Shown here in pieces: positions 1 through 63,199 of a stretch of 64,000 bases of DNA (positions are counted from its first letter, which is position 1; every line of letters starts with the position of its first letter). Origin of the DNA: Catajapyx aquilonaris (taxonomy: Eukaryota); contig JYFJ02001846.1 of the NCBI GenBank assembly GCA_000934665.2, positions 1-64,000 of the forward strand, given 5' to 3'. The translations under genes were made by a program, and so were the position numbers. The notes beneath the pieces were generated by a model that worked only from the letters and a program-made list of their open reading frames with translations, was not told where the DNA came from and did not search any database.

Positions 1-757
1 CCCTGTCCACACGGGCAGAGAGCCGCGTCCCCAGCATCGTCCTTCAACCGCCGGAAACGGACCAGGTAAGCTCGGAAGGGCCCGTGACCGGAAACCAGTG
101 CCTACTATACGTGCAGGTCAGTCCAGTGAACAAGACCATCCTGATCATTCTTATTGCAGAACCGGAGAGCTAGGTGGGCTACAGCTGTCAGAAGACAATC
201 CAGTTCATGACGGTGCAACGAATCAGGGGTCAATTATCCAGTCACTGCTGTTGGGCAGCGCCTGCCAGAGGTACAACTACCTCACCAGACAGCCGCTCCT
301 CTTGAGCAACGATTACCAGTGAGTTTTACTTTTGGAGTCCCTTACCCAACTATTAATATTCCGCAATCCTTCTCTCCTACTCACGTGACCCACTCCCACC
401 GCAGATGAGGAAGCTTGCCGGATGGGCGGCATTATCACACAACTGAAGTTCCACGTGCCAGAAGCCTGAGCCCTAAGTGTCCAACGAGCCCTGGGTGTCC
501 AGCAGGCCAAGGTGCAACGGGAGTTTTGTCTCATTTTGAACGTAAACGGCGAAAAATGAGTGTGAATCTACGATCAACAAACATTGTTGTGGGAAAGGAA
601 GTGAACCCGGGTGAGATTGTTCCAGAAGTGATGGACCATGATGATGACACTTCTGGTGGTGACGACGGAGTTGGTGAGGCTTCTGGTGGTCAGCTAGCCC
701 ACCAGCGGACAGGTCCAAGGAAGCAGGTACAAAGCACCAACACTTTGTGATCAAGCT

Positions 758-1558
758 TTGGACGTAATGTCAGCAACATTGACTGGTAAGGCGTTTTTGG
801 CTAGTTTGGCAAACAAAAAGACAACAGCCGGTAAGTGGGATGCATTACTTACAGCAAGGGATGAGGCACTCAGGTGTATGTTTGTTAATGCACGTGCAAA
901 TGGATGTGAGCCACCTAGCGCAGTGTTGTTGCGAACACAGTTCTTGGGGCCGGAAGCCGCAGAAGACGGGTGTCCAGTCCGCCCTGGTGGGCCATACGTT
1001 TGTGGAGAGAGACTACCCGTTCACCCGGACGGCGGTGGCCCGGTTTATCGGCAAGGATCTCCCTTGCTCCCCCCCCCCNCCCCCAAAGAAGGTACCCAGC
1101 CGGCGGGAACGAGCTACCGGCCCGCGGAAGAGGAGGAGGAGGTCGACGCTGGACCTAGCCCACTTCTTGTCCCGGTGGGGCCGGAGGAGCCCCTGGTGCA
1201 TAATTTGGCACCGGGGGCTTATCTGAAGTGGAGGAAGACGCAGCAGTTCGCAGCCAGGAAGAGGATGGAAGAAGAGAGGAGCCTGGAGGAGCAAGAGGAA
1301 CAGAAGGCATCTCTTGCCTTGTTGGGCATCCCCACAGGAGGATCGGACATCACCCCGGACATGCTGTTCGGCCAGGTGACTAGCGTGGCGTTACAGCTCA
1401 GGATGGAGGTGCACCGGCTGCGGGAGTTGACTGAGGGTAGGAAGCAGCCACCGCCTACTCCGGGCCGGTTCTTGGAAGAGGTCCGGAGGAACGGACTGGA
1501 AGAGGAGGACCGGATGGATGAGCTGGAAGAGGAGGACATCCTCAGTGACGTGCAGTGA
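758..1558 (+). CDS. Unassigned 266-aa ORF (Pro-rich middle, acidic/coiled-coil C-terminus); probably element-derived, possibly a chimera of two fragments
   Basis: Long open frame in a GC-rich block with an overlapping +strand ORF (840-1226); no recognisable domain. Confidence 0.25.
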   Translation: MDVMSATLTGKAFLASLANKKTTAGKWDALLTARDEALRCMFVNARANGCEPPSAVLLRTQFLGPEAAEDGCPVRPGGPYVCGERLPVHPDGGGPVYRQGSPLLPPPXPKEGTQPAGTSYRPAEEEEEVDAGPSPLLVPVGPEEPLVHNLAPGAYLKWRKTQQFAARKRMEEERSLEEQEEQKASLALLGIPTGGSDITPDMLFGQVTSVALQLRMEVHRLRELTEGRKQPPPTPGRFLEEVRRNGLEEEDRMDELEEEDILSDVQ

Positions 1559-2334
1559 ACTGTGTGGCGTTTCAGGAAAAAAAAAAAAACGAAAAGGAAA
1601 ACCAATGGGGGGACGGGCCGGTGGCGCTTGTAGTGCCGTGTTTTTATCTCATGCTTGAGTGTCCAAAAAGTGTTTTTCGGACTTGTATTGGTAGGGGGGA
1701 TTATCAGGATGGGGGGCTCATAAGAAAGTGGATGTGGCGCCGCGGCGGTTGGCTGCGTGCGCAGGGCCTTCCCCCCATCCTGATGGTTCTCCTCCCCCAG
1801 GAGCTGTTGTATCCTCACCAGGAGGAAAAAGGGGAGTTGTCGGCCGGGCTCGGAGGGAGCCGGTCGGATGTATTTTGTGGAGCATGCCAGCTGCACTTGT
1901 TGTGGAAAATATACTGTGGTCCCTTAATCTGGATCTGTTTTAGTAGATAGAACCCTTTTACAGGAGCTAGCCGGCCAGGCCCATGCAATGGGTCCGATAA
2001 AGACGATGTTGATGATCTCTTTGATCATCAAGAGGATGTAGGGAATGATGTCATTAATAATTTGAATGAAGTAGTACCACATGTTGACCAAGTACTGGGA
2101 AGAAACATGCGTGCTCAATTGATGGGCGAATTGTGGAACAGGAGGCGAGGGTAATAAAAATACATTATCCTTGTTGAGCAGAAAGTTAACTCCAGAAGCC
2201 CATGATCTAGCTCAAGTTGTTTCAATATTTAAGGCATGTTGAGCAGGCCCACAGGGATCTTGTGGTTGGGGTAGCCGCTCGCGGACCCTGAACCAATCCG
2301 AACCAACACCAGCTCCTTCTACAGCACCACATAA

Positions 2335-2852
2335 AGGCCCGTTTACACGATGACTTTCCTAACGTTTGTACTTTACGCGACTTTCCTAACCGTTCCTAAC
2401 GCAAGTCCCTACCCTCCACACGACCACTTTGATAACGTTCGTACCGTGGTTCGTACTTATGGAAGTGGGCCGTTAGTAGCCAAGCTGCAATTCCGCCGAC
2501 AGGCAAAGATGGAGGCCGCCGACGAAGATGAGTTGCTGCTGCAAATGCAACAGATCGTCCTCCTGATGATGGTCAACGCCCAACTCCGTTTGGCTAGACG
2601 CAGAGAGAAGCGTCGACCACGGAGGTGGTAGGTGAAGGAGATTTACATCGATCGTCAGAAGGAAGGCGATTTCCACACCCTCTTGGTCAAGATGAGGCGT
2701 TGCGGGGATCGAGAGTCTTTTAAAACCTACACAAGGCTGAGCCCGGAGCAGTTTGACGACCTCGTCAGACGTGTGGAGCCTCTCATTTCCAAGGAGACGA
2801 CAGTGATGAGTAGGCCGATTTCAGCAGCGGAGAGGTTGGCGGTCACACTCAG
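2335..2852 (+). mobile_element. PIF/Harbinger transposon 5' end with pseudogenised transposase exon 1
   Basis: TAA then AGGCCCGTTTACAC terminus at 2335; ATG 2509 ...RRPRRW*VKEIYIDRQKEGDFHTL...FKTYTRLSPEQFDDLVRRVEPLISKETTVMSRPISAAERLAVTLR then GT donor at 2853; internal TAG. Confidence 0.85.
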
Positions 2853-4249
2853 GTATAGTAACCAATATGCAATGCACCCGCAGCGTGGAAATATATTTAT
2901 CATCATAAATTAATGCATGCAATGAAAACACTAGCCACTAGGCCACATAAAGAAGGAGTCACTGCAGTTACAACCTTGTATAAAAGTGGGATTTAGGCTG
3001 TGTGCGGCATATTGCCCTTGGAAACGGAACAGTTGGTGAAGTGTGAAGAAGAAAATGGACTTAGAAGTGAAAGTATTGGCCGAAAATTCACGACCTAAAC
3101 CTCGACGTGTCAAGCTGAAGGCTCCTGACGTGCCAGCCAGCCATGGTTGAGACCAGAAGCGGGCGTGTTGTCCGACCAAGACAGATATTAAACTTGTAAA
3201 CCCTAATTCAAATACCATTAACCGGGGATGGTTTCCTGGATTTAAGGTAGTGTACAACAGGAGGCAACACATTCTCAACTTTGCTACCAGTTTTATCAGC
3301 ATGAATGAATATGGAGTAGTTTTCCATACTGGCCAAATAAACCTAATCTAGACTTTGAGTTAGGCCCACTCGAAATAAGGATGGCCATCTCGGTCTACAT
3401 TTGTACAGCCAGGAACAATTCTAATGCATGAGGTCCTTTGTGTGCAGTTACAGGACGGATAGTGATGGACCCCCACCTAAGAAGAAGAGGAAGAAGCTCC
3501 TAAGAGGAACTGTGCTGGAAAGGATACATGAGGCGAATGTCAAAATGATGACCAATCAAATGAAGCAAACGGAACGACACCATGCGGCCAACCAGAAAAT
3601 TATGGGGCCAACTTGTTGATGTCTTATCCCAACTCGTGCCCGCTACTAGGAAGGACCCATAAAGTATACTGTTTGTTTAGGTGAATCAAATGAAACTCGT
3701 TTGGGGCGACTGGAGAGGATACTGCTGAATGCAGGGACTTTTGATTTTTTTACCACAGCAAGTTAGTATAAATACCTCCTAAATGCATGAGTAAGAGTCT
3801 GCACCAGCAGCCTATCAGAGATGGCGTGCGCTGTTTGGAGAGTGCCCAAGCGGGATCAGCGCTTCAATTTCTGACTCTTTGCATTCAATTGCATATTTGC
3901 ACAGAAATTCTCTTCATTCGTTCATTTACTTTTGTTAACACTTGTTATAATGTCTACTAGGGCCTTTGCGTCATGGTTGCCATGGAACAGCCCAGGAAAA
4001 TGCCTCATATTAACATTTTCATTTCAGAAACAACTTCCCAGCCATTTATCGCCTGACCTCTTTCCCTCATTGGGTACAAAAGTTGCTGGGAGTAGGGACT
4101 CCTCACCTGAGGGATAAGCTATGTGGCAATCTGACTAAGCCTAATGTACGTATACATTGCACTGTTCACTGGCAGAGTGCCAAGGATTTTTGTCATTGAA
4201 TTCTAACACTGCGGTTCGATATTTCAAGGCTACCTGGATCAAGAGATTG

Positions 4250-5636
4250 GCGGACAAATTAAAAAAATTTAGATCAAGAGATGGAGATTTGACCAGCAAC
4301 AATGAAGTTGCTGCCATGAAAAAGAAGTAGGGGGGAAAAAGGCCAAGCCTATTGAGTCAATTGTGGGAAATGAATATATCTCTTACATTCCTATCAGTCA
4401 GACATTAGGATCTGTACTGGCAAAAAAACAGATGTTCTTGGCCACATTCTAAAGCCTAAGGAGAGTGCTATCACACTGAGTGACTACAAGGATGGAAGTT
4501 TATACCAAAAGAGTGAGACATATCGGAGTGATTCTCCGTGCATAACTTTGCAGCTCTACACGGATGAATATAGCCAACCCCGTTGGTCCCAAGAGAGAAA
4601 GAAAAAAAAACACAAACTAACAGGTGTTTACTTCACTACTGGCAACCTTCCTCCAAAATACAGATCAAAACTGAAGTACATTTTCTTGGCCCTGCCAGAG
4701 TGCTTTTCAAAAACATATGAAGTGATAGGATCAGCTTCTCAGAAATGGTGCCTTTTTTCTGTTGCTTCCTTTCTTGTGCCCACTTAGTTCCTGCAAAGAA
4801 TTGGACAATGTGTATTCATTGGCCAGGGATATGTTGTGTTACATACTAAAGTGGACCCAAACTGCCTGGCATATTTGGACATGCCCATCTCAAACTTTCT
4901 GAAGGCTGTGCGTGACACACTCCCAACATTTCGCCTCACATCCAAGTTCCACCATCTAATCCACTACCCTAGAGCATTGATGATGTATGGCCCCTTGAAA
5001 CACCAGTGGTGCATGCGCTTTGAAGGAAAGCACCAGTATTTTAAGTCACTCCCCCAGCATTTGAATAATTTCATCAAACTCCCAAAACGTTTGGCCACAA
5101 GGCATCAGATGCTGCAATGTTAATCAGTTGAGTTCTGATGAATTTCTGGGTGAGGAATTGCAACTGCCATCAACAGGAAAACATGTACAGATATCATCAC
5201 TTCCCCTCTATTACCCCTGAAAGTCTCTACAGAGTCACATGGGAGTCACAGGCACCTGAGCCTCCAGCTCCAGCTGTACCCCCAGTTGCAGTTCCACCTC
5301 CACCCCCAGCTGCAGATCCAGCACCACCCCCACAGGCACCCCCACAACCTCCAGCAGCAGAGGGGCCGGTGAGTAAACATGAATTAACACAACCTTGGTT
5401 GCTCCCACGTGATCGTTTATGTAAACATGTTCCCTCAGTACAGGGTGCCCGTAAAGTCTACCGCCCTTAAAATTTCGCACATAGCTGCAACATCTTCCTG
5501 TCACATTGATTTACTTGGCCAACTTTTGAAAACCACAAAAATCAATAAGGGATACAACTGTTATGAAGTGTCAGACATGGGCACAATGTCAATTCACCCA
5601 GGCACTGAAATGGACCAAACTTCCCTCTCACTATGA
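4250..5636 (+). pseudogene. CACTA/EnSpm-like transposase remnant, interrupted by a Pro-rich exon fragment (~5242-5375)
   Basis: LQLYTDE...KKHKLTGVYFTTGNLPPKYRSKLKYIFL and TSKFHHLIHYPRALMMYGPLKHQWCMRFEGKHQYFK...LATRHQ motifs; frameshifts and deletions. Confidence 0.85.
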
Positions 5637-6990: not shown

Positions 6991-7279
6991 TGGCAGATGA
7001 CCGAAGCTCAACCACCCAAGACTCGAACAAAAAAAAAGAAGCGTGTAATTTTCTGGAAGTGAGGGGATGGCAGACACTCCCATCGTAAATGCACGCCGAC
7101 GTCTGAACTTTGAGAGTACTAATGACATCCAGGCAGCAGTTGTAGTTGCAGAGGAGGAGACGAGAATCCAAGAACGGGCCGGACGGAGAAGATGAGTGAG
7201 AATGTCCTTCACACCCGGACCTTCCTGGGGGTGGAATCACGATTTACACTGCCCTTGCACCTGATTTAAGCAGCGTATC

Positions 7280-7575
7280 TCCGGAGGTTGCTTGCCTATG
7301 GAGCAATTTCTCAAGTCACACAGAGACCACTGCACTGCAAACTGCGAAGGTCCAGCTGGTGGAATGGAGCCTAGGGGTATGGTCAAAATATTTGGTCGCC
7401 CAGAAGAACAATACGAGGTACAGTATAACTCATACATAGGTGACGGTGATACTACAACAGTTGGAGCGTTAAAAGCCTCCAATCCTTACACTGGTATTGT
7501 CATCAAGAAAATAGAATGTACAGGCCATGTTCAAAAGAGAATGGGAGGGCGGCATATAAAACTGAAGAAGCAGTT
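7280..7575 (+). pseudogene. Mutator-like DDE transposase core fragment (Kolobok-type elements)
   Basis: HCTANCEGPAGGMEPRGMVKIFGR...YNSYIGDGDTTT...NPY...KKIECTGHVQKRMG. Confidence 0.8.
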
Positions 7576-7729
7576 AGAGCAGAACTCTTGCAAACATTGT
7601 GGACACCACCAACACTGCAATTGGATACACAGAACCTGAGATACACGCTGAGTTGTAGGGAGCTGTTTGTGAAACTCCTTCATTTTCAACGACGCCTCAG
7701 CCTGTGACCTTTGATCCCGAGGTTAATCG

Positions 7730-8854: not shown

Positions 8855-9210
8855 AGATATTACTCTAGCCATCATTCTGCCACTCACAGTCAGTCGGTTT
8901 CTACAAACCGAAAGCATCAACTTAAGTGAAGCTCTGGCATCGACCGTGGACGTGCAGCAGATGTGCAGCCAAGCCAAGGAAGTGTTTGAAAGCATCTTCA
9001 CACAAGTGGAAAGGTGCTGCAAAGATCTCGGCGTTGTCAAGAGCATTCCACGGCGAATAGCACATCAAACCCAACGATGCAACATTCAGTCTCTCCACAA
9101 GAGTATTACCGATTAGCTGTTTTTATTCATTTTCTGGACAATATCATAAGCCAAGTGAACGAGAGATTCCTCAAACACAAAGATATTCTTCAAAGCTTCA
9201 CGTGTTCCTG
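8855..9210 (+). pseudogene. hAT (ZMYM1/THAP12-like) transposase fragment
   Basis: LPLTVSRFLQTESINLSEA...EVFESIF and EYYRLAVFIHFLDNIISQVNERF. Confidence 0.75.
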
Positions 9211-9481
9211 TTATAAGTCCGAAAGAGGGTGCCGGACAAGAAGTGGACTGCGGGTCGGTGGGGACGTAACTCTGGCATGCGGACCATCCGTGGGCGCCGT
9301 GGTGTGACCGGCCACTCATGGCGGAGCTGGGGCCCAGCAAGGTACCGAATATCGGCTCCACGCGTCCTTTGCCGGCGCTGAGAGTGAATTGGACCCCGCC
9401 ATCGGGTTACGACTTGGAAGGTGCGAAGAACCCGACGGCCCCGGAGGTGGTCGTCTCGCCCCCCGCTGCTGTTGCCCAGCC

Positions 9482-9663: not shown

Positions 9664-11341
9664 AGGTCCATTCTCATATCTGCGAACAGTCGACCTCTCG
9701 CGCTCCTCATCCTACAAGTGCTTGCCCTCCTAGTAGAGGAAAAGCAGCTGTTGGAACAGGCTAAGGAGCGTAGGAAGAAGAGGTTTTGGGTCTATGAACT
9801 CTGGCAGACAAGGAAGCAATCGGGGCAATTCCACAACCATGTAAGTACATAATCATACTTCATAACACCACACACTCAGTGAATGTATGCGGTCGTCCCT
9901 TTTAGATGGAGATCATGAGGAAAACAAGTGCTGGACCTGAATACTTCAGAAGATTTTTGCGAATGCCACCCGAGTTATTCGACTTTCTGACCAACTTGGT
10001 CCATGACAAGCTGATGAAATATCCAAGGAACAGAGAGCCTCTCAGCCCAGGCCACAGATTGGCCATAACCCTGAGGTAATTACTATAGGCATCATGTATT
10101 ATGATTACATTTTACCCAATTTAGAGATTTTAAAATGTGTTATTTTAACGTTACAATTTAGATTCCTTGCTACTGGTGGTAGTTTTACCACCCTTGCATT
10201 TGCATTTTGTGTGGGCATAACCACAGTATACAATGTCATAAAGGAGACATGCAAGGCATTGTGGGCCTTGCTGCAACCCCTCTACCTCCCAGTAAGTTGA
10301 CATTCAATGCATTGCTTATTTATACACTCTCACTGATAGCAATAATGTGAATCGCTTGCATTGCGTAGCAGCTAACCAAAGAAGACTGGGCCGATGCTGC
10401 TACGGATTTTTGTGACAGATGGCAATTTCCACTCTGCTGTGGGGCTGTCGATGGGAAGCACGTGGTCCTGGAACAGCCCCGGAACTACACAGTTAGTGAT
10501 ATTACTAGTGTTAATTTTTACTTACACTCTGATTCATGTGCTCAATGTGGTCATTATTTTATTCCAGAAAACAGACTCCATTGTTTTGATGGACATCGTG
10601 GACGCAAATTATAAATTTATGATAGTGGACATTGGCAACTACGGTTGCCGATCGGATGGAGCGGTGTTCAAGACGTCACCTCTGGGCCAGAAGTTGGAAG
10701 ATGGGAGTCTGGAACTACCAGAAATGGCGGTGCTGCCAAGAACAAGCACCAAGCTCCCCCATGTGCTTGTCGGAGACGCCGCATTCCAGCTGAAGCCAAA
10801 CTTTATGCGGCCTTTTCCCGACAGTGACAGCACAACATCCGCAGAGCGGTTGTTCAATTATCGTCTAACGACTCTAAGCAGAGCAAGGTATGATTTGCCA
10901 CACCCCTAACCTTACTCCCTGCTGTTGTGGCACATACCTACTATCACTAAGGTATATGTAGCCATTCAATTGCTATCTTCCAATAGGCGATGCAGTGAAA
11001 ACGCTTTCAGCATCGCTGCGCAACAGTGGAGGGTGTTCAGGAAGCCTATTTCTCTGGCCCCCAAGAATGCAGATTTGGTGATAGGGGCATGTGTTGTTTC
11101 GCACAACTTCCTACTGACGGAGGAAAGTCTGCCTAGAAGGGCCAAGTATTACTGCCCAAGTGGCTTTGCCGACTCAGTGGGTCCCGATGGCGCATTGATC
11201 GAAGGACAGTGGCGGACTGCGGGAGCACAAGATTCAAGCACCACTATCTTCCGCAGCATGATGCCAAGCCATGCAAAAAAAAAAAAACTACACTTCAGCT
11301 GCACGAGGTCTCTGCTCGAGTGTATTGATGTGCAGGAGTAA
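9664..11341 (+). mobile_element. PIF/Harbinger element with near-complete six-exon DDE transposase gene
   Basis: TTA|AGGTCCATTCTCATA terminus. Exons ~9690-9840, 9906-10075, 10162-10291, 10369/72-10491, 10568-10887, 10987-11341 splice in phase through GT-AG introns. Motifs RFWV, RLAITLRFLATG, GAVDGKH, RSDGAVF, VGDAAF, FNYRL..SRARRCSENAF, HNFL. Confidence 0.9.
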
Positions 11342-12371
11342 AATAATGAAGGTGAATGTGAGGTTACTGTGTTTGTATTTGTACATTAGGATGATGTTTA
11401 AAACATTCCACAGGTGTTGACAGTCTGTTTATGGAAAAAGGTTGTATCATCATCATGATGATCCAACATTATTCCATTGTGAGGATCATATTTAAGTAAT
11501 AACTAACTAAATAATGTAAGTATGAAACAGGAAAATTGATTAATGTAATCCTTTGTTCAAACAAATTCGGAAAATAAATTTACAGTTCCCTCAGAACAGC
11601 AACCCACCAGATGACACAGCTGAGCAAGACAGCGACGACGATAGCACTGGAATAAGTGTCTGAAAAGTTAGGAGGACCTCAGCATTGTAGCGCAATCCCT
11701 GTGACTGCACCACACGCAGTTACAACCACTGCAGCACAAGTTGATTCCTCTTCTCAAGCATCTGCACCTTTGCAAGATATATCTCAAAACTCCAATTCCA
11801 TTTACACCGAAAGTACCCCACAATACAGATATTGATGTAGTATTTTTCAAAGTAGGAACTTATCATTTGAGATGCTCAGATTTTAAAACACTATAATCAC
11901 GAAGAAACAACATGATATGGTAGTAATATTATATATGAGGAGGAAGTTGCATTCTGCAGTGGACGGTGTCCTCCGTCATTATGTGCTTCACCGGCTTGTA
12001 CTTGAGACTTGCGATCAGGAGACTGCGTCTCCTTCAGCAATCGAAACTGCTCGCAAACTGCCTGCTTCTCCATTGCTGTCCACTGCAGTACACTCACTGG
12101 TAGTGCAAGAAAGGCTGCCTCATAATCTTCAGGGAACGTGCCTCCTCAACCTCAAGACCTCGGCCGCCATCGACATCGACTGCGGGCATACTGGAGATCC
12201 GATGTACTCCGACGACCCCCTGACACCCGAGCGTCCCGTGTCCCATGTTGGGAGGCGCGGGCCAGGACGTCCCAAGAAAAAGCATCGTGACCGCCCTAAG
12301 ACCTCTGCAAAATCGGTCAAGGAGCAGGCGGCTGACGCTAGGCGCCGCTATCATGAAAACAATCCTGACCC

Positions 12372-12660
12372 GGTGATCATTGGATTCTTTTCCTTTGCAT
12401 ATCTAAGGCAACACCCCCTACATTTGAGTTTTATGATCCAATGGGACCTCAACGACCTACTACGCAAATTCAGGTCCTGAAGAACAAGTTGATTCAGGCA
12501 TCGAAATATATTCCGGAATTTGCATCTATCGATTTCACTAATGTAGATCACAACCGACGGAATCAATAGATGGACTGTGGCCCACTTGTGTGTCATTATG
12601 CGGAAAGTGTAATTAGTGGTTCTGAAGCTAATTTTTCTCCTGCTTTTTGTAGACATATTT
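12372..12660 (+). pseudogene. Ulp1/C48-type cysteine protease domain remnant (transposon accessory)
   Basis: One frame reads GDHWILFLCISKATPPTFEFYDPMG...NRRNQ*MDCGPLVCHYAE: H-D-C triad order with one internal stop. Confidence 0.7.
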
Positions 12661-18575: not shown

Positions 18576-18579
18576 TTAA

Positions 18580-50640: not shown

Positions 50641-50917
50641 ATTTGGTTGGCAGGTCGGTTCGCCCCGGGGCGACCTAACCGCCCTCCAAACCGAGCTCTG
50701 GACCGGACACTTACTCAAACGCACACGCAGGCATCAGGAATAGCTTACAACAACGAACAAATTTACGACCCTGCCGGGGCACATTCTATAACATCATTTT
50801 CGGGTTCATTTCACTTCGCGTGACGTCAACATTTTCGAGACAAACAGTGACGTCACCATTTCCCTTCGAAAAAACCCTAATTACTCCGGAACTGAAACTG
50901 ATTTCTTAAAACGGAAT

Positions 50918-50950
50918 CCTATCCTAACCTAACCTAACTAAACCTAACCA
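50918..50950. repeat. Short degenerate (CCTAA)n array
   Basis: CCTATCCTAACCTAACCTAACTAAACCTAACC; reverse complement of arthropod TTAGG. Confidence 0.6.
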
Positions 50951-51364
50951 ACCACCCGCCTTACAGAGTCATGCCTGCTCCTCACAGCTCTTGCACATTA
51001 GCTTGTTGAGGATCCCCCATCCCACCCGCAGAGCAGAGAAGCGGATCTCCGAGCTCGAGTCGGCGCCTTTTCCAGACCACCAGAGGCCTGTTAAGCAGCA
51101 CCCCCCCCCGGATGGTTCCTGTTAAGACCTCCACTCCAGCCACTTCCGTCCCTGAGAAGAAGCCAAGGAGGAGGGGCTGCCGGGCTGGTAAAAAATACAG
51201 GAAGAACCAGGCCGACAAAGATGCCAGCCAAGCCAGACGGGCGCAAGAACTTTTCCCCAAAGAGGCCCAAAGGGAGGTGTTCAACCGCCAATACAACAAG
51301 CGCCTTGCCATCAAGCAAGAAGCGGATGTTCGGCTCCAATACCAACTGTGCCGCGGCGGGGGAG

Positions 51365-52075
51365 AGCATCCAACAATTGCAAGAAGACTTACGGAATTGG
51401 CCCAGCCACGTTTTTGGCAACCACGCCAAATGCAGAGATTCATATTGCAAGAGGAAAGACTTGGGAGAGGAGAATTATGTACAGGAAGTGAAGAAGGCCG
51501 GGGTGTACCAAGAGGTCATGGCTCTGGTGAATTCCTTGGTGAGTAAAGCTGGTCGTCTGCTCCCCAACAACACCAGCAACAGCGCTGAGCACTTCATGAG
51601 TTTGGTTGCCAAGTACGTTGGAGAGAAGAGGATAAATTACAGGCGCAAAGGGGGATACACAAGAAGGTGCATGGGTGCAGGAATGGCCCTCTCAAGTGGA
51701 CCATCTTGGCATTTGTCTCCTCTCCGGCGTGCGCTACAACGTAAGTCTCGGGGTCTTCACCAAACGCCTGATGCAGAGACGTGAGAAGAGGAGAGGTTCC
51801 ACCGCCAAGTCCCGACGGAAGGTGCCATTTCTTCCCAGAGACAAAACCAAGACAGCAACGAGGCCACAAGAAACTCTGCGTGATTATGGCAAATCTGCTG
51901 CAGAGCCGGACTTTACACAAGAAGAAATGGAGATTGGCTGTCGGGCAAAACTGGTCGAGCTCCAAGTAAGTGAAGAAGATCAAGCAGACATCGAGAAATC
52001 AACACGGCTACAAAGTCAGTCCCACGTATGGGGCACTCACCGTCGTCCTCGCTTGACGGCGTCAAACTTCGGAGA
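51365..52075 (+). pseudogene. Mutator-like transposase C-terminus fused to a YqaJ N-terminus
   Basis: DLRNWPSHVFGNHAKC..YC, NTSNSAEHFMSLVAK..GEKRINY, DYG..A.EPD, IEKSTRLQSQSHVW..HRR.RLTASNFG. Confidence 0.75.
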
Positions 52076-52089
52076 GGGTCCAAATTGAA

Positions 52090-53557
52090 ACTAATTATTG
52101 TCACTATTTTGTGTCGATATGTTCTTGTCAAAAAATATGGACTGAGTGTGATTCTTAAGCCACTGATAGAAGAGATCAAAGAATTGAAAGACACAGGTGT
52201 CAATATTTGTCTGGGAAGTGAAATTAGAACATTCAAGGGCACTGTGATTAGCATCCTTGCTGACAACCTCGGGCACATACTATTGGTGGTTATGTGGCAA
52301 ATTTCAGCTCATCTTTAAGAGTGTGCAGATTTTGTATGATTACCAATGAAGAAGCAAGGGTATGTGTAGATAATCAGGAATGACAACTTAGAGGCAGAGA
52401 TTTATATGAGGAACATATGCAGTCGGTAGAGGATGATGAAACATTGAGCAGTGTTTACGGATTAAAAAGTAGATCTGCTTTCAGCCAGCTGGCCCACGCT
52501 CACATTACTGAACTTCTTCCTCCAGATGTACTCCATGACCTCATGGAAGGCGTTATCCCTGCAGTAGTAACTTTGATGTTAAAAGTGGGTCATGACAAAA
52601 AAATACTTACTCTACAAGTCGTGAACAACATATTTGAGTGCTTCCCTTTTAAAGGCACAGATGGACGATCCAGACCAAAACCCATGTTGAGTTATACTGC
52701 CTTCAGACAAACACGTAGTCAAGCTTGGTGCGTCATCAGATTCTTTCCCCTGCTCTTTGGTGAGTTTGTGCCACAACAAGAACCAATGTGGGAAGTGATA
52801 CTTTCTCTTCATAATCTAGAAACTTACTGCATGGCTCCATGCCTCACTCCTGCAATGGCCAATAACCTAGCCGTAGTGATTCGGGAATTTCTGGAGAGGT
52901 ACAAAGATATTTCTGGCTCTCGAATGACTCATAAATTTCACTACTTGTTACATTACCCTTCAATTATTAAAAAAATCGGTCCAGTAGTCACATGTAGCAC
53001 AATACGATATGAGGCAAAACATGGTGAACTTAAGGAATGGGCCCACAGGACAAAAAATAGGAAAAACATTTCACTGACACTTGCTAAACGTCACCAGAAC
53101 CATCAGCAGTATTTGTGGGCATCAAAGTTGCTGCAATCAGTTGGGAGATATGAAAAGGATTTAAAAAAAGACTGTCAGCAATTTGAAACATGTATGTGTA
53201 CAACAAAAGTTGCAGGAGTCTGGGTGCAGTAGGAATGATGAGATAACAATTTGCTCTCATATTGATTTTTGTGGGACAGAGTATCGATGTGGCATGGTTG
53301 TCATTGCAAAGGTTACTGATTACGAACCGTAATTTCACTCGATTCTTAACATCTACAGCATCAAGGAAGAAGTTGTCTTTTTGCTACATGAAAGGCAGGG
53401 CCATTATGACCGCCACTTTGCTGCTCATGTTTTGGAAGAAACGAATGCTCGCTCAGCAGTACATGTCAGTGAATTGAGGACTTTCTTGCCACTTAATGTG
53501 TACACAGTGAATGGAAAACAATGTGTCGTTCTAAAAGTAATGTATCCAATCCATTAA
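52090..53557 (+). pseudogene. CACTA/EnSpm transposase, long remnant
   Basis: ILADNLGH, VCRFC, PPDVLHDLMEGV, THKFHYLLHYP..I..IGP..STIRYEAKH, LAKRHQ; frameshifts and stops. Confidence 0.9.
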
Positions 53558-54520
53558 CCCTTAACTAGTATCATGGGGTCTTTTTTGACCGCAAGCTTAC
53601 GAGAATATTAACAGTGTCAAGTTATATCCTGGAATGGACCTTATCGGAGCTACCTTCATCGCTTCCATTTGGGAGGAGATCATGTGGGGGATGCATCAGA
53701 AGACAACGGAGATGGTGGGGATCACATAATAGATGATAACCAGAATGATTCTGATGATGCGCGGTGCCAGTGTGGAGACGGAGTTCAGACTGCAGCTCAT
53801 ATCATCTGGAGCTGCAATATCCCAGAAATAGCAGCTGCCCGGGGAGAGCTTCGCCGGACATCTGTTTCTAGAGGATTAGGATGGCCCTGTTCGAAGAGGG
53901 CTCTGGTGGAAGATTTGCTGCCTGAGTTCAATCGTTTCTCTCTGGCAGTGGACCGAAAATTGTCACCTCAATGCAGGAAGAGGCTGGAGTAAGCTACGGG
54001 AGGTGTCGTCTGATGCCAACCCAAAGAAGTAGAGGAAGAAGAGTACGCTATACGGGGTAGACCAGATCTAATCCAGAGAAGAAAGACACGCGAATAATTT
54101 TGAGTGTGCATAATGTGAATTGGAATATTGCTAATTTGACTATTTATTGAATAAAGCATGGTGATGGGTGCAGGGCCTGTCTAGGCTAGTCACCTTAAAC
54201 CTCTCGACAGTGTCAAGTTACTCATTAATTAAAAGCCAAATGCCTTTGTGTATACCTCAAACGTATCTTTGCCAAGGGGGTAACCACTCGACTGAAAAGT
54301 GTACACTGGAGTACCAAATTCAAGGAGTACCCCGGAGTATACCAAGGAGTACCACTCGCAGGTGTACACCGGAGTACCGAAGTGGTCACCCCCTTGATCT
54401 TTGCCTATGTGGTCTTTGAAAATGGAAAAATTTAAAAAAAAATCTGGGCCATCAAAAAACAGCTGTAAGCACGGTGGGTGCATCAGGGGTCAATAAAGAC
54501 CCCATGATACTAGTTACGTT
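53558..54520. mobile_element. piggyBac-like non-autonomous element
   Basis: TTAA|CCCTTAACTAGTATCATGGGGTCTTTTTTGACC vs reverse complement of 54488-54520 (29/33), followed by TGAA; GGAGTACC subterminal repeats at 54300-54380. Confidence 0.75.
53615..54155 (+). pseudogene. R1-like LINE C-terminus and 3' UTR inside the piggyBac-like element
   Basis: GPYRSYLHRFHL...CQCGDGVQTAAHIIWSC; AATAAA ~54150. Confidence 0.65.
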
Positions 54521-55399
54521 TGAATTCCTCATTACTCTTGCATTCATGTCTTCAAATGAGCATCTTCTAGTCTTTCATTCTTAAGATCATTGCATCTTCC
54601 TCTGTTCACTTTTGAATTTGCAACTTCAGATTGCCCATAACAGATACCATGCCCACACCAAACCACACACCAACACCCACACACACACACACACCCATGT
54701 GAATGACCTATAACGTCCATCTCAACACAGACAGGGTAGGTGAACGTCTACTCTAAATTGTATGTGTATTGTTATTTCCTTGAAAAAATTGCCCAATTTA
54801 ATTGCAAGAACTAATGTAGTTTACAATAATGTTTTCCAGCGACTGCCATGTAACATGCGGGGCGAAAAAGAAAGTTATTCGCACTGCCACCCGAAACGTC
54901 AGGGACATCTCCCTATCAATTAAAAATGCCTTCTCGGTAAGTGAAATGCATGAATACATCATAATATAATCTGGACAGCCATTACTGGCTCCATTTGTGA
55001 CATTGATTTGAAATAATTATATTCACATGATAATTATGTGCTCCTGTTATTGTACTACAGCTCGCATGTCTTCCTCAAGTACAAGTGTTTCATGAAAAGT
55101 ATGGAGATTGGGTGGATGTAGAGGAAGGAGAGGAGGTTCCTCCTACAGCCAGGAAACTACTTGTAGTTGAAGACGAGTATGAATGAAGGGAATGTTATCA
55201 TGATAATAATGCATGATAGTAAATACTTTTGCAATTCGACAAGGACACTATATGACATTCTCATCCATTTCAGGACATCAGAAAATGCAACAGTAATGGA
55301 GCCGGCATTTTCGGACACAACGTTAGTATATTTTATATAATGCTTTGTTGCAATTTTCAATTGAATTATTAACTAATTATATCTAACACGAAGCTGCTA

Positions 55400-55530
55400 G
55401 ATGTATACTTGTACTTCCCAATACCAGGGCATAGTTTCATGCCAATTGATCGAGCATTCGCCAAGATTGAAAAATGCAGAAGGAAGAAAGACAATGCCAC
55501 AGTACCATCCACATGGATTCAAACTAGGGG
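55400..55530 (+). pseudogene. Sola1 transposase catalytic fragment
   Basis: YFPIPGHSFMPIDRAFAKIEKCRRKK. Confidence 0.75.
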
Positions 55531-55539
55531 TGCAATGGC

Positions 55540-55850
55540 AGAGTGGCTGTGTCTTCAATAATATAACATTACTCCAGGCTTTGAAAAGTGGGACACTAAA
55601 CGTTCCCAGCAATCATCCCAATTACATGATCGGCGACGCTGCATTCCCAATGAAGCCGTACCTTATGAAGCCATATGGTGGGGCAAACTGGCAGCTGTAC
55701 GAGGAGGAGAAGATATTTAATTACAGGTTAATCACGGGCGAGAAATGTTGTCGAAAATGCGTTCGGCATACTGGCGGCACGCTGCCGAGTTCTGCTGACT
55801 TCCATCCGAACAAAGGTGGAGACAACATATCTCATTGTACAAGCATGCTG
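55540..55850 (+). pseudogene. Harbinger transposase C-terminal fragment
   Basis: MIGDAAFPMKPYLMKPY...KIFNYRL, frameshift, SRARNVVENAFGILAAR. Confidence 0.88.
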
Positions 55851-56093
55851 AAGGAGTTCCTCCAAATACTACAGCCTTCAGAAGGGAAAGTATTCAGTTC
55901 AGTGTACTTTCTTCACCAGAAATCTCATTGTCCTCAATGTCCCTGAAGTCTGCTACAAAGCTCATCCTATTGGTTTTGGAATTTTGCTTTTAAAGTGCTG
56001 GGGCACTGAGGAGTTGGCTTGAGAATCGGTCTAGTCAGTCAGTTTCGGTCGGGCTACAAGTGCGAAGTGTGGGAACGTGTCACGGTTGTAGCA

Positions 56094-56411
56094 ATGGCAG
56101 CGTCGAAAGAGGACACTTATAGATTTGTGGAGCTGTACCAGCTCCACACTTGCTTGTGGGCAGTGACCAGCGAGGATTACCGCAATAGGTTAAAGCGTGA
56201 CGCCGCGGACCAGGCCATCGGAGAGAGCATACAGATGACAATACCAGCGGTCAAGAAAAAAATCCAAAGCCTGAGGACAACATACTCCCAAGAGAGAAAG
56301 AAGCCAGCTGTCCATCTGGACCAGGGACGGAGGATGTGTATGAACCTACCATCCAGTGGTACAATCTAATGGATTCATTTATCCGAATACAAACAAGCCT
56401 CCAGGCCATCT
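56094..56411 (+). pseudogene. MADF-domain (Harbinger accessory) gene, N-terminal part
   Basis: FVELYQLHTCLWAVTSEDYRNRLKRDAA...VKKKIQSLRTTYSQERKK..SGPGTEDVYEPTIQWY. Confidence 0.85.
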
Positions 56412-56792: not shown

Positions 56793-58552
56793 TGAGTAAG
56801 CTCATACATGCTAGACCAATACCACATTCCCAAGGATGCTGTAAATTCACCTGGCCACAATCATTAATAAGTATATTAACATTTAAATGGTCCTGTTGCA
56901 ATGTTTGCCCAGTGGAAAATTTGGCAATGACGAAGGTGAGTTGCAGAATAATTGAACTTGTCATGACCTTTTAGGGAACTCCTGGCTAAGGAGCCCACAA
57001 CAAGCCCTGTCCTCATGGGCCCAGGTCAAGTTGAAGGTAGGGATAAAAGGTTAGCAATGAGACAGTTCCTGCTCCACAACACTCCAACACTCCCAACACT
57101 CGTTCCTATAGGTCTTCTTTTGTTTGCTCCAAGTCCCTCCCGGCACAGGTTATGTACGTGCGTCAAAGGGCACTTGAAGCTAGCGAAAGTGGGCCCAAAG
57201 GAAAATGGGGATGAGTAGTTTTTCACTGGCATGGCAGAACACCGGTCTGATTGCTACATGACCATCTGCACTCGCTGTCTTTCATCAATCTCCACAGGCC
57301 ACATGCTGCCTTGTGGCTGATGTGCAAATGTCGAGTGCATATAGGGGGTGTGGCTAATGAAGTAACGCACACTTGCTTACTAGGTATTGCAGCAATTTTG
57401 CAATACAGCTTTCAGATATCAGTTCAAATTACGCCTAATGTGCGCTAATGCTGTAGTGTAAATGTTTTGTGCAATGCAAGGGTTATGTTAGAACACACCA
57501 TTAATGATAAATTTAATTACGGCCATAAGACATTGGAACTTAATTTTTCAAACACCCACACTTGACCTTCGTCTCTTGCAGGTTGTGAGTGAGTCTCGTG
57601 AGCACCCAGTAAACGTGCTGATTGTAGAGGTATGAGGTTACATTTCAATTACTTCCGTCAATGTTGAAACCTGTCTGAAGAACGTCAACCACCCTTAATT
57701 ATTCTCATTGGATCAGTCACTTTAATAGTCCAGTGGTTTTAGCACAGTGCAGATATTAAGTGGGCGAAAAATTAGTCGGCAGCTGGGTGGAAGTTATTTG
57801 TTCTGTTGGTGCAAATTTCAGGATTCGGACCATGAACTGGAGGTGCCTCATGTCCCAGATGTCACACCTCAAACATCCAAGACCCCTGATCCATGGACTG
57901 GGAGAAGGCGCCCAGCTAAACCATGTCAAGCCACAAAGCGGCAAGCAGCTTCCGCTTTTCTGCATCTGACATGGACTGACATGGACGAGCGGCTAATAAA
58001 AGAGGAGGAAGAGGTGTCAAGGCAGCGACGGGAGCTACATCAAATGAAAATGGCAGTGCAAGCTAGAAAACTGAAATATTTCCGTAATAAAAAGTAGTTG
58101 AAAAATTTAGTTCCCACAGTGTTTACCAAACAGTGCGGTTACTTGAATCCCTTCCTGCACAATAAATTTGTTTAAAATATGTTTTTAAATGTCTGTGTGA
58201 GTGACGCCAGGTTTGTGTAGCTAGATGCATGTGGGAAGGGAACGTCCTAAGATGACATTTGATATGCTCCGCCCTGGCCTGGGCTTCCACTGACTCCTAT
58301 GGTCAGTGCTAGGAAACCCTTCTCCACTCCAACCTGTTCTATACCCACATGTGTGGCCTCATCGATACTCTTTGAGTCCTTAATGGACGCTGTACCGGGC
58401 GGTGCAGACACTCGGCTGGTCCAGTCAACTTCATAGGGACGACGGGCTTAGGTGGCAGCAGAGTCGAAATTGCTCCTACCGACCGAGTCGGCAAACACTA
58501 CCGGGATTCTTCTGCAGACGAAAAGTGTCAGCTAGCCTATTCATCATGGGGG

Positions 58553-58774
58553 ATGGGGGATGCTGTGCAGATCCATTTACGATGCGGATTTAAGCCCATG
58601 GATGGTGTATCCCGGTACTTTCGACCTGCTACTCTGAAGAAAGGCTTGAGCTTGAAGTCTGCAGGCCACATTGAGGATGTGACACAAGTGATTCGGGGCC
58701 ATGGCGGAGAAGTTACTGGAAAATGTGTTCCCCAAATGAGGGTTCAGGCGGCACGCTATGACGTGAACTTGGAG
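58553..58774 (+). pseudogene. First exon of an ISL2EU-type YqaJ/SWIM gene
   Basis: LKKGLSLKSAGHIEDV...VTGKCVPQMR...YDVNLE then GT donor. Confidence 0.55.
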
Positions 58775-59168
58775 GTAGGCCATAATAAATGAACCTCTCT
58801 AACCTTCTAAAATTCTGAAAGCCCATTACTCTATGCATGTTAAAATGAGATGTAATTGAAGGGCTTGGTGCAAGAAGGGGATAAATCCAATTTTGGTTGG
58901 AAGGACTTTATTGGCCGCTCGGATAGGGGGAAAAAAAGGCCGATCGCTTGGTGCAAGAATGGGAGTCATCCGGCTGGAAACGAGCATGTCATAAAGGCTG
59001 TGGATATATACCCCAGCTCCCTTTGGTAGTAAGAAGGGGGCAGATCCGGGATGTACCCCTTTCTTGCGCCCGAAAGTTTCAGCATTGCAGTTATTTGCTG
59101 CCTGGGCACCGCGGTCCCCTTGCCCCTGGTCGCAAAAGCCAAACATGGATGCCAATAAAGGCGTGCAG

Positions 59169-59550
59169 ATGGACGAGTTGCGAGATTTGTCTGATTCGGG
59201 GAGTGACTACGTGCCTTCCGGAGATGACAGTGACAGTGAGGAGTCGTCTGATGAGGAGCCATCTGCAGAGGAGCCATCAGGGTCTGGTGACACTGGTGCC
59301 CAGCATGTATATGAAAAACGTCGGACAAGGAACCCAGGGAAGTGGCAGAGGTCCTTGCGGAAAACGAAACTCGCCAAAGGGGAGGCTCATATTAACTCCG
59401 CCAGTGTTGCAGTGGAGGCCAGGAAGCCTGCCACACAGTGCGAGTATAAGAAACAGTGCTTGTCGGCTTTGACGGATGACCTAAAACAGTTGATACTCGC
59501 ATCGTTCAACTCCATTGGTGACTTTCACAAGCAGAACATATATCTCAAAA
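59169..59550 (+). pseudogene. Sola1 transposase N-terminus
   Basis: SDSGSDYVPS acidic tract; KRRTRNPGKWQRSLRKTKLAKGEAHI...QCEYKKQC...ILASFNSIGDFHKQNIYL. Confidence 0.75.
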
Positions 59551-59639
59551 CGGCCCGATGTGTAATAAAATTTACTACAGAGAAACTACTGGGTGCTGAA
59601 GCTGTTGCGAAGGGCCTGCAAAAGATGGTTCGTAATTTC

Positions 59640-60175
59640 GCTATCAACCCTTGGGGCAAGGTTCGGGGTAAGACTTGGGCTTCTAGTCGATGTTGTAAAA
59701 CAAGGCGGAGGTACAGTAATACTAACGACGGAAATACCGCTACGAGGTTTTTCGCCAACAGCTCCAAGTCTGCATCGATTACGGGGATTGACGAGTACAT
59801 TGTGCAGAAACTGGGAACAATATTGAAGGCTGTCTCAAGTGGGTATCCCATTGACGCCAGTAAATTCAAGGACTACTGCCTCGAGACAGCAAATTTATTG
59901 GTGAAAGCATACCCCTGGTATCCTACGCCAGTATATAGGCTGTATATAGGCTCCTTTTACACGGGCCTCAGATTATTGCCATGTCCGGCCTGCCAGTTGG
60001 TCTGCTGTCAGAGGAACCTCAGGAGGCCAGAAATAAGGACTACAGATACATCAGGGAGCATCACACACGAAAGACGTCAAGGGTTGGCACAAATGAAGAC
60101 GACCTGAAAATCCTTCTTGTGTCTTCCGACCCTATCATTTCATTGACAAGGACAATGCCTCCAAAGAAGAGATGG
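59640..60175 (+). pseudogene. Transib (RAG1-core-like) transposase remnant
   Basis: LGLLVDVVKQGGG, TNDGNTATRFF...ITGIDE...YPWY, LPVGLLSEEPQEARNKDYRYIREHHTRKTSR..TNED..LLVSSDPIIS; frameshifts. Confidence 0.9.
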
Positions 60176-60499
60176 ATGCCGCTAGATATCATCTGGCTCA
60201 GTTGTTACATAGTTCAATATGGCTGATGGCTGTAATGAACATAAGTTAGGTCAATGCAGATCAAGCAGTACTTCATGTGGCCCTTCACCCGCCAGTCGTC
60301 ACGACGCCCATTGCCGAGCGACACCATTCCAGGGCATCATTATAATCCACCTTGAGAAACATTTTCAACCAAAACCAATTGTCTATTTCATTGACTCGTG
60401 GCAATCTCCTGCAGGAAACGTTTTCCCCTTACCCATCTTGGGGGCTGCTCTGGCTTCGACGCCATCTTGGATCCCTGACGGTCGACTGTAGCAGTGGGT

Positions 60500-60725: not shown

Positions 60726-60811
60726 TGGATGGACTTCGCGGGTTGCCACTGCTCAAGTTCCACACCCCCAAACGCACCCTCTCAGCCTTCCGCCGAATTT
60801 GTGAGCGGGGC
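60726..60811. mobile_element. Fragment of the Harbinger MITE family seen at 18334
   Basis: Reverse complement CACAAATTCGGCGGAAGGCTGAG..GTGCGTTTGGGGG..GTGGCAA..AAGTCCATC aligns with ~18336-18431. Confidence 0.8.
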
Positions 60812-61206
60812 AAGAAACGGAAGCACTCTGACGATTCCATTGCCACCAGTGGAGGCAACATGAAGAAGCCCCGCCATGAGAAGGTAAATGATCCCAATTG
60901 GAAATATAGTGCCATTTTTAAAGGAGCTTGTTTTCACTAGATTCTTCTGATCTCAACGAGTCTTAATAGCCTTCAATACTGACAAGGGACCTTTCCTGGG
61001 TGATAATACAATGTAATGAATATAAATGATGGATTCTACTTTCTTCTATTGAGGTTTGACAGTACCATTGACTCCTGATGTAACAGCCGCATCTTTAACA
61101 TACACGAGGTAGAGTTGATTATTTCACGATGTCGATGATGCCGAAACTTCCACTATTTTACGAGAAAGACTACAGGCCTTACCTTGCAGCTACACTCTGA
61201 ACCATG

Positions 61207-62791
61207 GAAACTATACGCCGCCTTCCTTGACTTATCAAAAGCCTTTGACACGGTGAACCACGAGAAATTATGGGCAACAATGCAAATGAGCCGTATAAGC
61301 ACTCAATTTATTGCGATTGTGCGTGACATTTACAATAAGTTCCGCATCACTCCAGGCTTAGGCGAACCGGACATACATTTACATGTGGGGAATGGAGTAC
61401 TGCAGGGGGAGGTTCTTTCGCCTGTACTGTTTAATATCTATATAGCAGGCCTCGGGAGAGTTCTAACTGAATCTGGAGCTCATGGTGTGAATTTTGGAGC
61501 GAATCAGGCAGATGTACACTATTTAACCTATGCTGACGATATAGTTTTAATGGCAAGCAATCCACTACACTTGAAAAAGGCATTAGAGACCACTGTAACT
61601 TTCTTTTCCAACATGCACCTGACACTGAATATCAACAAAACCAAAGTGATGGTTTTTAGAAGAGCGGGTCGGCTACCACGAGGTCTGGTGTTCAAGGTGG
61701 CTGATCAACCACTTGAAATTGTTCCCCATTACAAATATTTAGGGGTGATTTTCTCCTCGTCGGGTAAATTTGTTAAGATGGCTGAATCTACAAAGTCCAG
61801 AGCGATAGCAACAATTAATGCTCTTTGGCCTACCTTATTAGACTACGGATACGTGACATTATGTTAGCAAAGAAGCTGTATGTGAGCCACGTTATTCCCA
61901 TTGCACAATACGCTTTTCCAACCTGGGGTACTCGGTACATGGACATTATGGAACAAATTCAGAACTCCTTTATAAAAAAGTTTTTGAGTCTTCCTAAAAG
62001 AACGGCGGGCTTTTTTATTCGGTTGGAAACTGGTATCCCACACTTGGGAATAACGTTGACAAGGCAGGTGATTAAGTTCAATCAGAAGCTTGTAAATCCA
62101 CACATTAACAAACTCCTGGTTGCAGCGTATGGATGCGCGAAGGTACAATCAGTTCAAGGGTCTGTCTCAATTGATTGGTGCAGGGATGTCAATAAGCTGC
62201 TACCCCCAGGTATCTATACTCAAATGCTCAACTCCAACCCGAGTGAGGCGCTCACCTACTTGACAGAGTTCTACGCTAAGCAAGACGAGGAACTTTTGGC
62301 CAATTCTATTTCCTATGCCCCATACTATGCAGCCAAATCTTTAAACCAACCGGAAGTGTATTGGTCTTACAATCTCCCACTAAACCCGCTGCGTACATGG
62401 ATTCGATTGCGTGGTTTACCTAAGGTTCTTTGGTTTCAAAACTATAAGTTTTCATTTGACGGTGGACCATGTGTGTGGTGTAACACGACCTCTGAATCTG
62501 ACCTTTTTCATTTACTTTTTGACTGTCCTTTTTTTGTACTCCCCGCTCTCAATACCTGGTAGATCTGCCCCGCATGCCGCCAGACGGCTTGGCTTTTGTT
62601 TTTAACAACCCTCCCAAAAAACCGATAATGGATGTGCACTATTTTTTTGTGATTGTCTTAAAAAATGTATATAATGGCTGAATAATTGGTTGTCAAAAAA
62701 AGGGAAGTGTATGTAATGACTTGGTTGCGGTGTCCCCCATAAAGGGTTAATCTTACCCTAAAGCCGGGGTACAAATAAATAAATAAATAAA
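61207..62791 (+). mobile_element. 5'-truncated LINE (RTE-X or L2/Crack/Daphne-type RT), frameshifted
   Basis: AAFLDLSKAFDTV, GVLQGEVLSPVLFNIYI, YADD, KTKVMVF, YKYLG, C-terminal CVWC..DLFHLLFDC; (TAAA)n tail; 16-bp TSD TACACTCTGAACCATG (61191-61206, 62792-62807). Confidence 0.93.
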
Positions 62792-63199
62792 TACACTCTG
62801 AACCATGAATCTTGTCATGTAAGGTAGAGGTACAAGAGTAATGAACATTGTTAAAATAAAAAATTAGAAATAATTCACTCACTTTCTTCTACACTATCCA
62901 CCATCTTGTATCCAACATGTTACTTTTTAAATTTCAGATCTCGGATGTGGATTGTGCTATTTATTATGCTCAACCGAGCTCAATCTCATGACCAGGAACA
63001 CCCCCATTTAAAATAGGTATCAAATTGATTAATTTAGGTTGGTGTGTCCGCCATATTGAAAACTGAAATTTTATCCAGATCTTCAGTATTCATCCGACAA
63101 AGTAATTTCACGAGGTGTTAAAGCCAGCTTCTTTATTAAGTAACCTAAGCACATAAATTCCATTCGAATAAGAAAATTTAGGATAGTCTCTTCACAATG

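Follow-up and report, generated by a model that had tools for sequence, protein, structure and literature searches.

We analyzed a 64,000-nucleotide stretch of DNA from Catajapyx aquilonaris (contig JYFJ02001846.1 of assembly GCA_000934665.2, positions 1 to 64,000; hereafter the window), which is a mosaic of decayed fragments from unrelated transposons with the forward (+) strand as their sense strand. The window has a G+C content of 44% and a CpG observed/expected ratio of 0.63, and the DNA is eukaryotic and evidently animal. At least 17 transposable element (TE) loci of readable orientation, plus an element with terminal inverted repeats and a miniature inverted-repeat transposable element (MITE), lie within the 64 kb (Table 1). 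Pfam detected no host-gene protein domain on either strand among the open reading frames (ORFs) of at least 40 amino acids (aa), and no viral domain among ORFs of at least 50 aa on both strands. The window gave no Rfam match at gathering thresholds and no transfer RNA (tRNA) gene with ARAGORN, and the CpG observed/expected ratio revealed no CpG island at its right end. When the window was compared with itself by seed extension, sensitive blastn, and tblastx, few repeats were found (a 391-bp pair of long terminal repeats [LTRs], an inverted-repeat pair of ∼180 bp, and some short matches), which argues that the pieces are neither copies of one another nor within-window duplicates. For the same reason, we rejected a segmental duplication or a single composite element as the cause of the strand bias described below. 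The bias extends to both ends of the window (1-64000), so the true borders of the tract lie outside our view.

The strand bias was quantified by a Pfam scan (E<=0.01) which handled both strands identically. Stop-to-stop ORFs of at least 50 aa numbered 310 on the + strand and 278 on the reverse (−) strand, and after four with N were removed, 584 were scanned. Matches to transposon families were found in 13 ORFs (eight loci) on + and in a single ORF on −; when only matches above the curated Pfam cut-offs were counted, there were seven ORFs in six loci on + and one on −. Shorter ORFs of 40-49 aa (n = 277; 118 on + and 159 on −) contained no transposon match and two noise matches, one on each strand. 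Weak non-transposon matches in three more + ORFs (Herpes_glycoH_C and LUC7, SpoIIP, and SAM_1) were also treated as noise; a herpesvirus-like element, whose sole sign was one weak sub-threshold Pfam match at 26957-27202, was rejected. Internal homology was assessed by tblastn with 21 window ORFs as queries against the window, and all four significant pairs beyond self-matches were direct and in + frames. Combining the eight Pfam loci with a gypsy reverse transcriptase fragment, four further members of homologous pairs, an LTR element, and two short interspersed elements (SINEs) gave 16 oriented loci on + versus 1 on − (two-sided binomial p = 2.7e-4 against 50:50; P(>=16 of 17) = 0.019 under a 70% bias), and the Pfam loci alone (8 versus 1) gave p = 0.039. 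These binomial values, and one against 80% given below, are set against fixed proportions and not against the genome-wide background of the species. Transposon pieces in the window face + far more often than chance. An earlier reading made from the letters of the window (the sequence-only reading) had put about 45 pieces from more than 15 superfamilies on + and only two on −; the bias itself withstood the both-strand tests, whereas its claimed magnitude did not, the supportable count being 16 + loci, some of them recognized by eye only.

ORF lengths were compared with Markov simulations that took the strand into account. For residue totals, 200 runs were drawn from second-order models fitted to each strand in 4-kb blocks, and for long-ORF counts, 150 strand-aware runs were used. 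ORFs of at least 60 aa contained 19358 residues on + and 14995 on −, compared with ∼14000 per strand in the simulations, and the observed difference was reached in 0 of 200 runs. The + strand carried 19 ORFs of at least 150 aa where 2.3 ± 1.5 were expected (simulation maximum 8 in 150 runs), while the − strand carried 5 where 2.75 ± 1.7 were expected. At 200 aa and above, there were 7 ORFs on + (0.23 expected) and 1 on − (0.33 expected). The excess of long ORFs is essentially confined to the + strand.

Table 1. Transposon pieces and long − strand ORFs in the window, in order of position. Homologous pairs are from tblastn of window ORFs against the window and lie in + frames.
Positions	Strand	Feature	Evidence or remark
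1222-1923; 50985-51515	−	Two long ORFs	Opposite long + ORFs in GC-rich DNA
2335-2910	+	PIF/Harbinger-like N-terminal region	By eye only
4731-5120	+	KDZ/Plavaka-like, C-terminal piece of large transposase; family shared with 52384-53229	Pair 4731-5108 with 52843-53097, E 6e-10 and 1.4e-8
7265-7636	+	Mutator-like transposase fragment	Pfam PF20700 E 3.5e-21; read-through 8.9e-20
8990-9304	+	hAT-like C terminus	By eye, no tool support; PDB sequence search none
10376-11338	+	PIF/Harbinger-type DDE domain over two ORFs	Pfam DDE_Tnp_4 E 2e-9 and 2.2e-3; pair 10652-10885 with 55539-55748, E 1.5e-9
16442-18167		Non-coding element with inverted-repeat ends of ∼180 bp, 75% identity	blastn 17984-18167 versus 16660-16489, inverted
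18205-18657	−	Long ORF	Overlaps + ORFs in stretch of ∼50% G+C; no Pfam match
19343-19684	+	Protein copy of unclassified family	Pair 19475-19600 with 59939-60223, E 1e-9, 48% identity over 44 aa
20002-22852	+	Young short LTR element	LTRs 20002-20391 and 22462-22852, 391 bp, 99% identical
24515-24718	+	Tc1/mariner-type HTH fragment	Pfam HTH_Tnp_Tc3_2 E 5.9e-5, 23.7 bits (below curated cut-off of 31.5)
25326-25862	+	Ty3/gypsy-type pol fragment, start of reverse transcriptase	PDB phmmer: Ty3 reverse transcriptase 4ol8 E 9e-4, Ty3 Gag-Pol 7q5b E 2.6e-3
27914-28381	−	Long ORF	Overlaps SINE
28025-28280	+	Head of tRNA-derived SINE	Box-B pattern match at 28074; classified by eye
38343-38696	+	C-terminal end of ORF2-like protein, long interspersed element (LINE)	Pair 38433-38543 with C terminus of 61819-62559, E 1e-3; Pfam none
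39249-39827	−	Long ORF, 193 aa, longest − ORF outside GC-rich DNA	Search of 1.84 billion proteins: no relative at E<=0.001
45403-46609	+	pogo/Tigger-type DDE_1 transposase remnant in three frames, then 190-aa ORF	Pfam DDE_1 E 2.5e-3, 1.6e-9, and 2.6e-10
47210-47450	+	tRNA-derived SINE	Box-B pattern match at 47262; orientation by eye
49762-50229	+	YqaJ-type exonuclease-domain ORF	Pfam YqaJ E 6.2e-7
50361-50714	−	PIF/ISL2EU-type DDE, only − transposase fragment found	Pfam DDE_Tnp_4 E 3.2e-7, 30.5 bits, above cut-off
51010-53229	+	Long ORFs in series (178-282 aa), large KDZ/Plavaka-like transposase	Pairs with 4731-5108
53612-53989	+	LINE-like C-terminal zinc-knuckle piece	By eye only; Pfam read-through 0 families
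54270-54400		Palindromic MITE-like repeat	Depth 62-270 in X1 contigs; orientation not readable
55373-56366	+	Second PIF/Harbinger-type element: DDE fragment, then MADF/Myb-like ORF	Pairs with 10652-10885
58927-60223	+	Longest window ORF (370 aa, 58995-60104) and frameshifted continuation	Same unclassified family as 19343-19684
61139-62669	+	LINE reverse transcriptase and C-terminal region	Pfam RVT_1 E 3.9e-25 (61139-61864); next ORF 61819-62559

Cut-and-paste elements are among the + pieces. The DDE_1 matches of the pogo/Tigger-type remnant sit in three adjoining ORFs (45403-45974). The second PIF/Harbinger-type element matched DDE_Tnp_4 (E 1.9e-4, below cut-off), DUF7869 (E 4.8e-3), and MADF (E 3e-14). 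At the N-terminal piece of 2335-2910, which looks PIF/Harbinger-like by eye from its motif, Pfam read-through gave 0 families and a word-index search of 2632-2910 in the "longer" mode found nothing. The last ORF of the KDZ/Plavaka-like series (52384-53229) has a weak Pfam Plavaka match (E 5.7e-3, under cut-off), and a word-index search in the same mode returned nothing. The longest ORF of the window likewise had no relatives in a word-index search at near lengths and gave nothing usable in an Atlas look-up; the family it forms with the copy at 19343-19684 may be a transposase or an accessory protein that is so far undescribed. An acidic-rich + ORF of 286 aa (698-1555, with an N at 1078) lies where the window is richest in G+C (55%); it had no Pfam match, and an Atlas look-up of 1082-1555 gave nothing usable. 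It could be a host exon or a structural protein of an element.

Retroelements and non-coding elements are interspersed with these pieces. The Ty3/gypsy-type fragment had no Pfam match, read-through included, and the ORF following the LINE reverse transcriptase (61819-62559) found nothing in a PDB sequence search. The piece at 53612-53989 is presumably a LINE-like zinc knuckle, an assignment made by eye from its motif. The short LTR element is flanked on each side by ATAT and has an interior of ∼2.07 kb with a single 229-aa + ORF (21400-22086), for which neither Pfam nor PDB gave a match; the element is apparently non-autonomous and a recent insertion. Several features read by eye give its orientation as +. 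It has TG..CA ends, a primer site of TGG type directly follows the left LTR, the right LTR is preceded by a purine tract, and both TATA and AATAAA read in the + direction. That this element and both SINEs lie on +, as claimed by the sequence-only reading, agrees with our own reading by eye. All three matches to the box-B pattern were on +, a total which is not significant since three or more matches occurred in 10 of 100 shuffles. Contigs from X1, the single public run with sequence in common with the window, contain words of the 47.2-kb SINE at depths of ∼450-1600, which indicates a very high copy number, and this SINE and the 54.3-kb MITE are among the most abundant repeats of the species. 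Over 36001-56000 as a whole, run X1 gave short contigs of depth 2-4 with 0-2 differences, the two repeats being very deep; it is low-coverage, DNA-like data and uninformative on strand or expression. The 1.7-kb element with inverted-repeat ends has short internal direct repeats, its orientation is not readable, and it is probably an old non-autonomous DNA transposon.

The single − piece belongs to a distinctive arrangement, in which the YqaJ ORF on + and the DDE ORF on − converge with their ends 130 bp apart. ISL2EU elements are described as having two ORFs, one for a transposase with DDE, HTH, and THAP domains and one containing a YqaJ exonuclease domain (PMC4482050). The two-ORF make-up is taken from that source; the convergent gene order is an observation in this window only. 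The YqaJ ORF probably represents the second of the two genes in an element of ISL2EU type, and by its domains and position the pair fits one two-gene element whose overall orientation is ambiguous. The sequence-only reading had attributed its − pieces to such elements with converging genes, which was borne out, although only one of the two − DDE genes it listed was found.

On the basis of the mosaic and its strand bias, we tentatively place the window within a one-strand, flamenco-type precursor locus of PIWI-interacting RNAs (piRNAs) with the − strand transcribed, a reading to which we give a little under an even chance. The mosaic and its bias were observed, and from them we infer transcription, its direction, piRNA output, and a selective cause. 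A long RNA polymerase II transcript would run along the − strand from right to left, with a start at the right end of our view or farther to the right, and would be antisense to nearly all of the TE remnants, whose sense strands are on +. Its processing would directly yield piRNAs antisense to DNA transposons, LINEs, SINEs, and LTR elements, with no ping-pong amplification involved. Selection would keep the co-orientation; antisense insertions would supply useful guides, and sense insertions, which would carry polyadenylation or splice signals into the precursor, would be lost. Because unrelated elements with different insertion mechanisms share no insertion orientation, the bias points to a long transcript with respect to which orientation was selected.

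We were concerned that the bias could be mostly a detection artefact, with − fragments similarly numerous but overlooked. The sequence-only reading had covered the + strand only, and − ORFs outweigh + ORFs in 10 of 32 two-kb bins (12001-18000, 26001-30000, 32001-34000, 36001-38000, 40001-42000, 44001-46000, and 58001-60000). Pfam read-through of the three − frames of these bins, with X at stops, gave 0 families in 24 translations. A control read-through of + frames (21 translations) recovered only the Tc3-type HTH and Mutator again and missed pieces which are readable by eye at 2335-2910, 8990-9304, 38343-38696, 53612-53989, and 25000-25862 (gypsy-like). Pfam would miss comparable − pieces, so its silence on − is weak evidence, and the word-index and Atlas searches were empty even for + ORFs. 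However, the automated both-strand tests (Pfam on 584 ORFs, ORF simulations, and pair orientation) all favor +, the number of − ORFs of at least 150 aa is at random expectation (5 versus 2.75), and the 193-aa − ORF is without a relative in the protein search given in Table 1. Together with the empty − frames of the bins in which − ORFs outweigh + ORFs, these results make an artefact very improbable. A real bias could still have a cause unrelated to transcription of the locus, such as an orientation process tied to replication or chromatin, ancient inheritance as a block, or chance among windows. Genome scans report extreme windows, so that some selection effect is certain, and the Pfam loci alone give only 8 versus 1. 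However, a shared insertion preference is unlikely for pieces that belong to unrelated superfamilies, insert by different mechanisms, and are not copies of one another; the ORF-length asymmetry appeared in none of 200 simulations, and the full tally of 16 of 17 departs further from 50:50 (p = 2.7e-4). To our knowledge, no replication-linked orientation effect of such size exists in animal genomes. We consider a cause of this kind improbable.

A more serious competitor is that the window lies in a very long intron or a long noncoding RNA (lncRNA) gene on the − strand and that purifying selection removed sense insertions with no piRNA role. Antisense insertions would accumulate, since those in sense orientation terminate the host transcript or disturb its splicing. 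This explanation and a piRNA locus both imply − strand transcription. An antisense bias of intronic TEs is documented (PMC3088655, PMC1794541, PMC3517506), and an 80% antisense bias is compatible with 16 of 17 (P = 0.12). The lack of any exon-like host domain in the 64 kb fits an intron and an intergenic cluster equally. Base composition is ambiguous on this point. On +, 50 of the 64 1-kb bins have more A than T (mean AT skew +0.045; sign test p = 7e-6), and GC skew is ∼0 across the window. In human introns, the non-template strand is expected to have T above A, and transcription-coupled asymmetry predicts G above C on the − strand here. The corresponding T excess on − has the sign expected of a non-template strand, with the A-richness of the TE sense strands as a confounder, and the predicted G excess on − was not seen. 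The A-over-T excess on + could reflect A-rich sense strands of co-oriented elements, a transcription-linked mutation bias, or both. Splitting the AT skew by ORF cover was dropped as confounded, as ORF selection itself shifts base composition. Homopolymer runs of at least 8 numbered 18 for A and 13 for T, and the long T-runs that were inspected were not assignable to retroposon tails. Also against an intron, no flanking exons are visible within the window, and its bias does not reside mainly in LINE and LTR elements, which work on mammalian introns names particularly (PMC3088655); besides these retroelements and the SINEs, the Mutator, two PIF/Harbinger, pogo, Tc1, and KDZ-like pieces are also on +. 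We ranked a piRNA locus above an intron or lncRNA because the bias is more complete than in the literature's ordinary cases, because DNA transposons and SINEs are biased besides LINE and LTR elements, because the youngest insertion (with its 99% identical LTRs) is also on +, and because no exon is visible in 64 kb. We regard an intron or lncRNA gene as rather unlikely.

Two features of a one-strand cluster are present in the window, namely a fragmented TE tract of many families and strong co-orientation. A locus of this kind would also be expected to be transcribed from a single strand, antisense to its TEs, to yield abundant 24-31-nt small RNAs that map uniquely to one strand with a 5' U bias, and to have its own promoter or be fed by a gene upstream. 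The flamenco-type interpretation of the sequence-only reading is thereby supported in part, by an anatomy of unrelated TEs in near-uniform orientation. Several observations weigh against a piRNA locus. Enrichment and bias specific to Gypsy or endogenous retrovirus (ERV) elements were not found: about 2 of the 17 oriented loci are LTR-type (the Ty3/gypsy reverse transcriptase fragment and the short LTR element), and the rest are mostly DNA transposons or LINEs. The fragments are mostly old, with many stops in their frames, and transcripts from them would guide poorly against active elements. No shortage of AATAAA was seen on − (48 versus 54 on +; ratio predicted from base skew 1.43, p = 0.23). 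The 80% bias given above is as relevant here as for an intron. The count was made partly by eye, and Pfam overlooks many fragments whichever strand they are on. The pieces at 2335-2910, 8990-9304, and 53612-53989, which are not among the 16 + loci, were assigned by eye with no tool support. Finally, the locus is known here from DNA sequence alone and within the window only, and an intron setting is possible.

A stronger version of the piRNA reading would make this a master piRNA locus with flamenco-like antisense order across every TE class, including at least five cut-and-paste superfamilies. We consider this doubtful on the present evidence from the pieces and their strands. If it were true, orientation would have been selected for DNA transposons too, and a primary, ping-pong-independent piRNA pathway would be policing them. 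We know of no flamenco-type locus that polices DNA transposons.

One-strand clusters with antisense transposons are already known in flies, moths, and mosquitoes; if the window were confirmed as another, its completeness and its DNA transposons would be what is unusual. Confirmation by small-RNA data would mean that near-complete antisense order is not peculiar to Gypsy control in Drosophila follicle cells and arises generally where selection acts on one-strand precursors, DNA transposons included, and it would provide a sequence-defined candidate master locus of TE control for the species. If the window is instead an intron, it would be an unusually strong example of selection on how DNA transposons are oriented within a host gene, a result of narrower interest. 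On either reading, loci of this kind can be nominated from raw sequence by scanning for strand bias.

Among known systems, introns of host genes share with the window a co-orientation relative to a long polymerase II transcript (PMC3088655, PMC1794541). There, sense TE insertions end or mis-splice the transcript, and the bias is chiefly in LINE and LTR elements and strongest near exons (PMC3088655); Zhang, Romanish and Mager 2011 (PMC3088655) excluded DNA transposons from their analysis. In the window, by contrast, DNA transposons are as biased as retroelements, over 64 kb with no visible exon. Core piRNA clusters of mosquitoes, which formed by transcriptional read-through (bioRxiv 10.1101/2022.08.22.504762), resemble the window in their antisense foreign insertions, which there are endogenous viral elements. 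They differ in being defined by small-RNA and chromatin data and in being enriched for viral sequence, whereas the window has no Pfam viral domain. By analogy with the mosquito clusters, an origin by read-through would fit a window that has no promoter of its own.

The closest parallels in content and anatomy are in a moth and in Drosophila, where piRNAs were measured and, for the fly loci, transcription, soma-specific expression, and synteny were also shown (PMC5844692, PMC10643416), compared with the sequence evidence available for the window. Of the 348 ovary piRNA loci of Trichoplusia ni, 286 are one-strand, and antisense TEs account for 57.1% of insertions and 79.7% of TE nucleotides in these loci (67.6% of insertions in a 77-kb example), a pattern that the authors attribute to selection favoring antisense insertions (Fu et al. 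2018, PMC5844692). These clusters share with the window a mixed TE content, a comparable size, and TEs preferentially opposite to the precursor, but their bias is far milder than 16 of 17. Drosophila flam-like clusters were searched for by TE strand bias and then confirmed with small RNAs (van Lopik et al. 2023, PMC10643416). Like the window, they are long tracts of TE fragments mostly in one orientation and can be found from sequence bias. They span 227-1085 kb, compared with our 64-kb view, and their bias is carried only by Gypsy elements (PMC10643416), whereas that of the window includes DNA transposons, LINEs, and SINEs.

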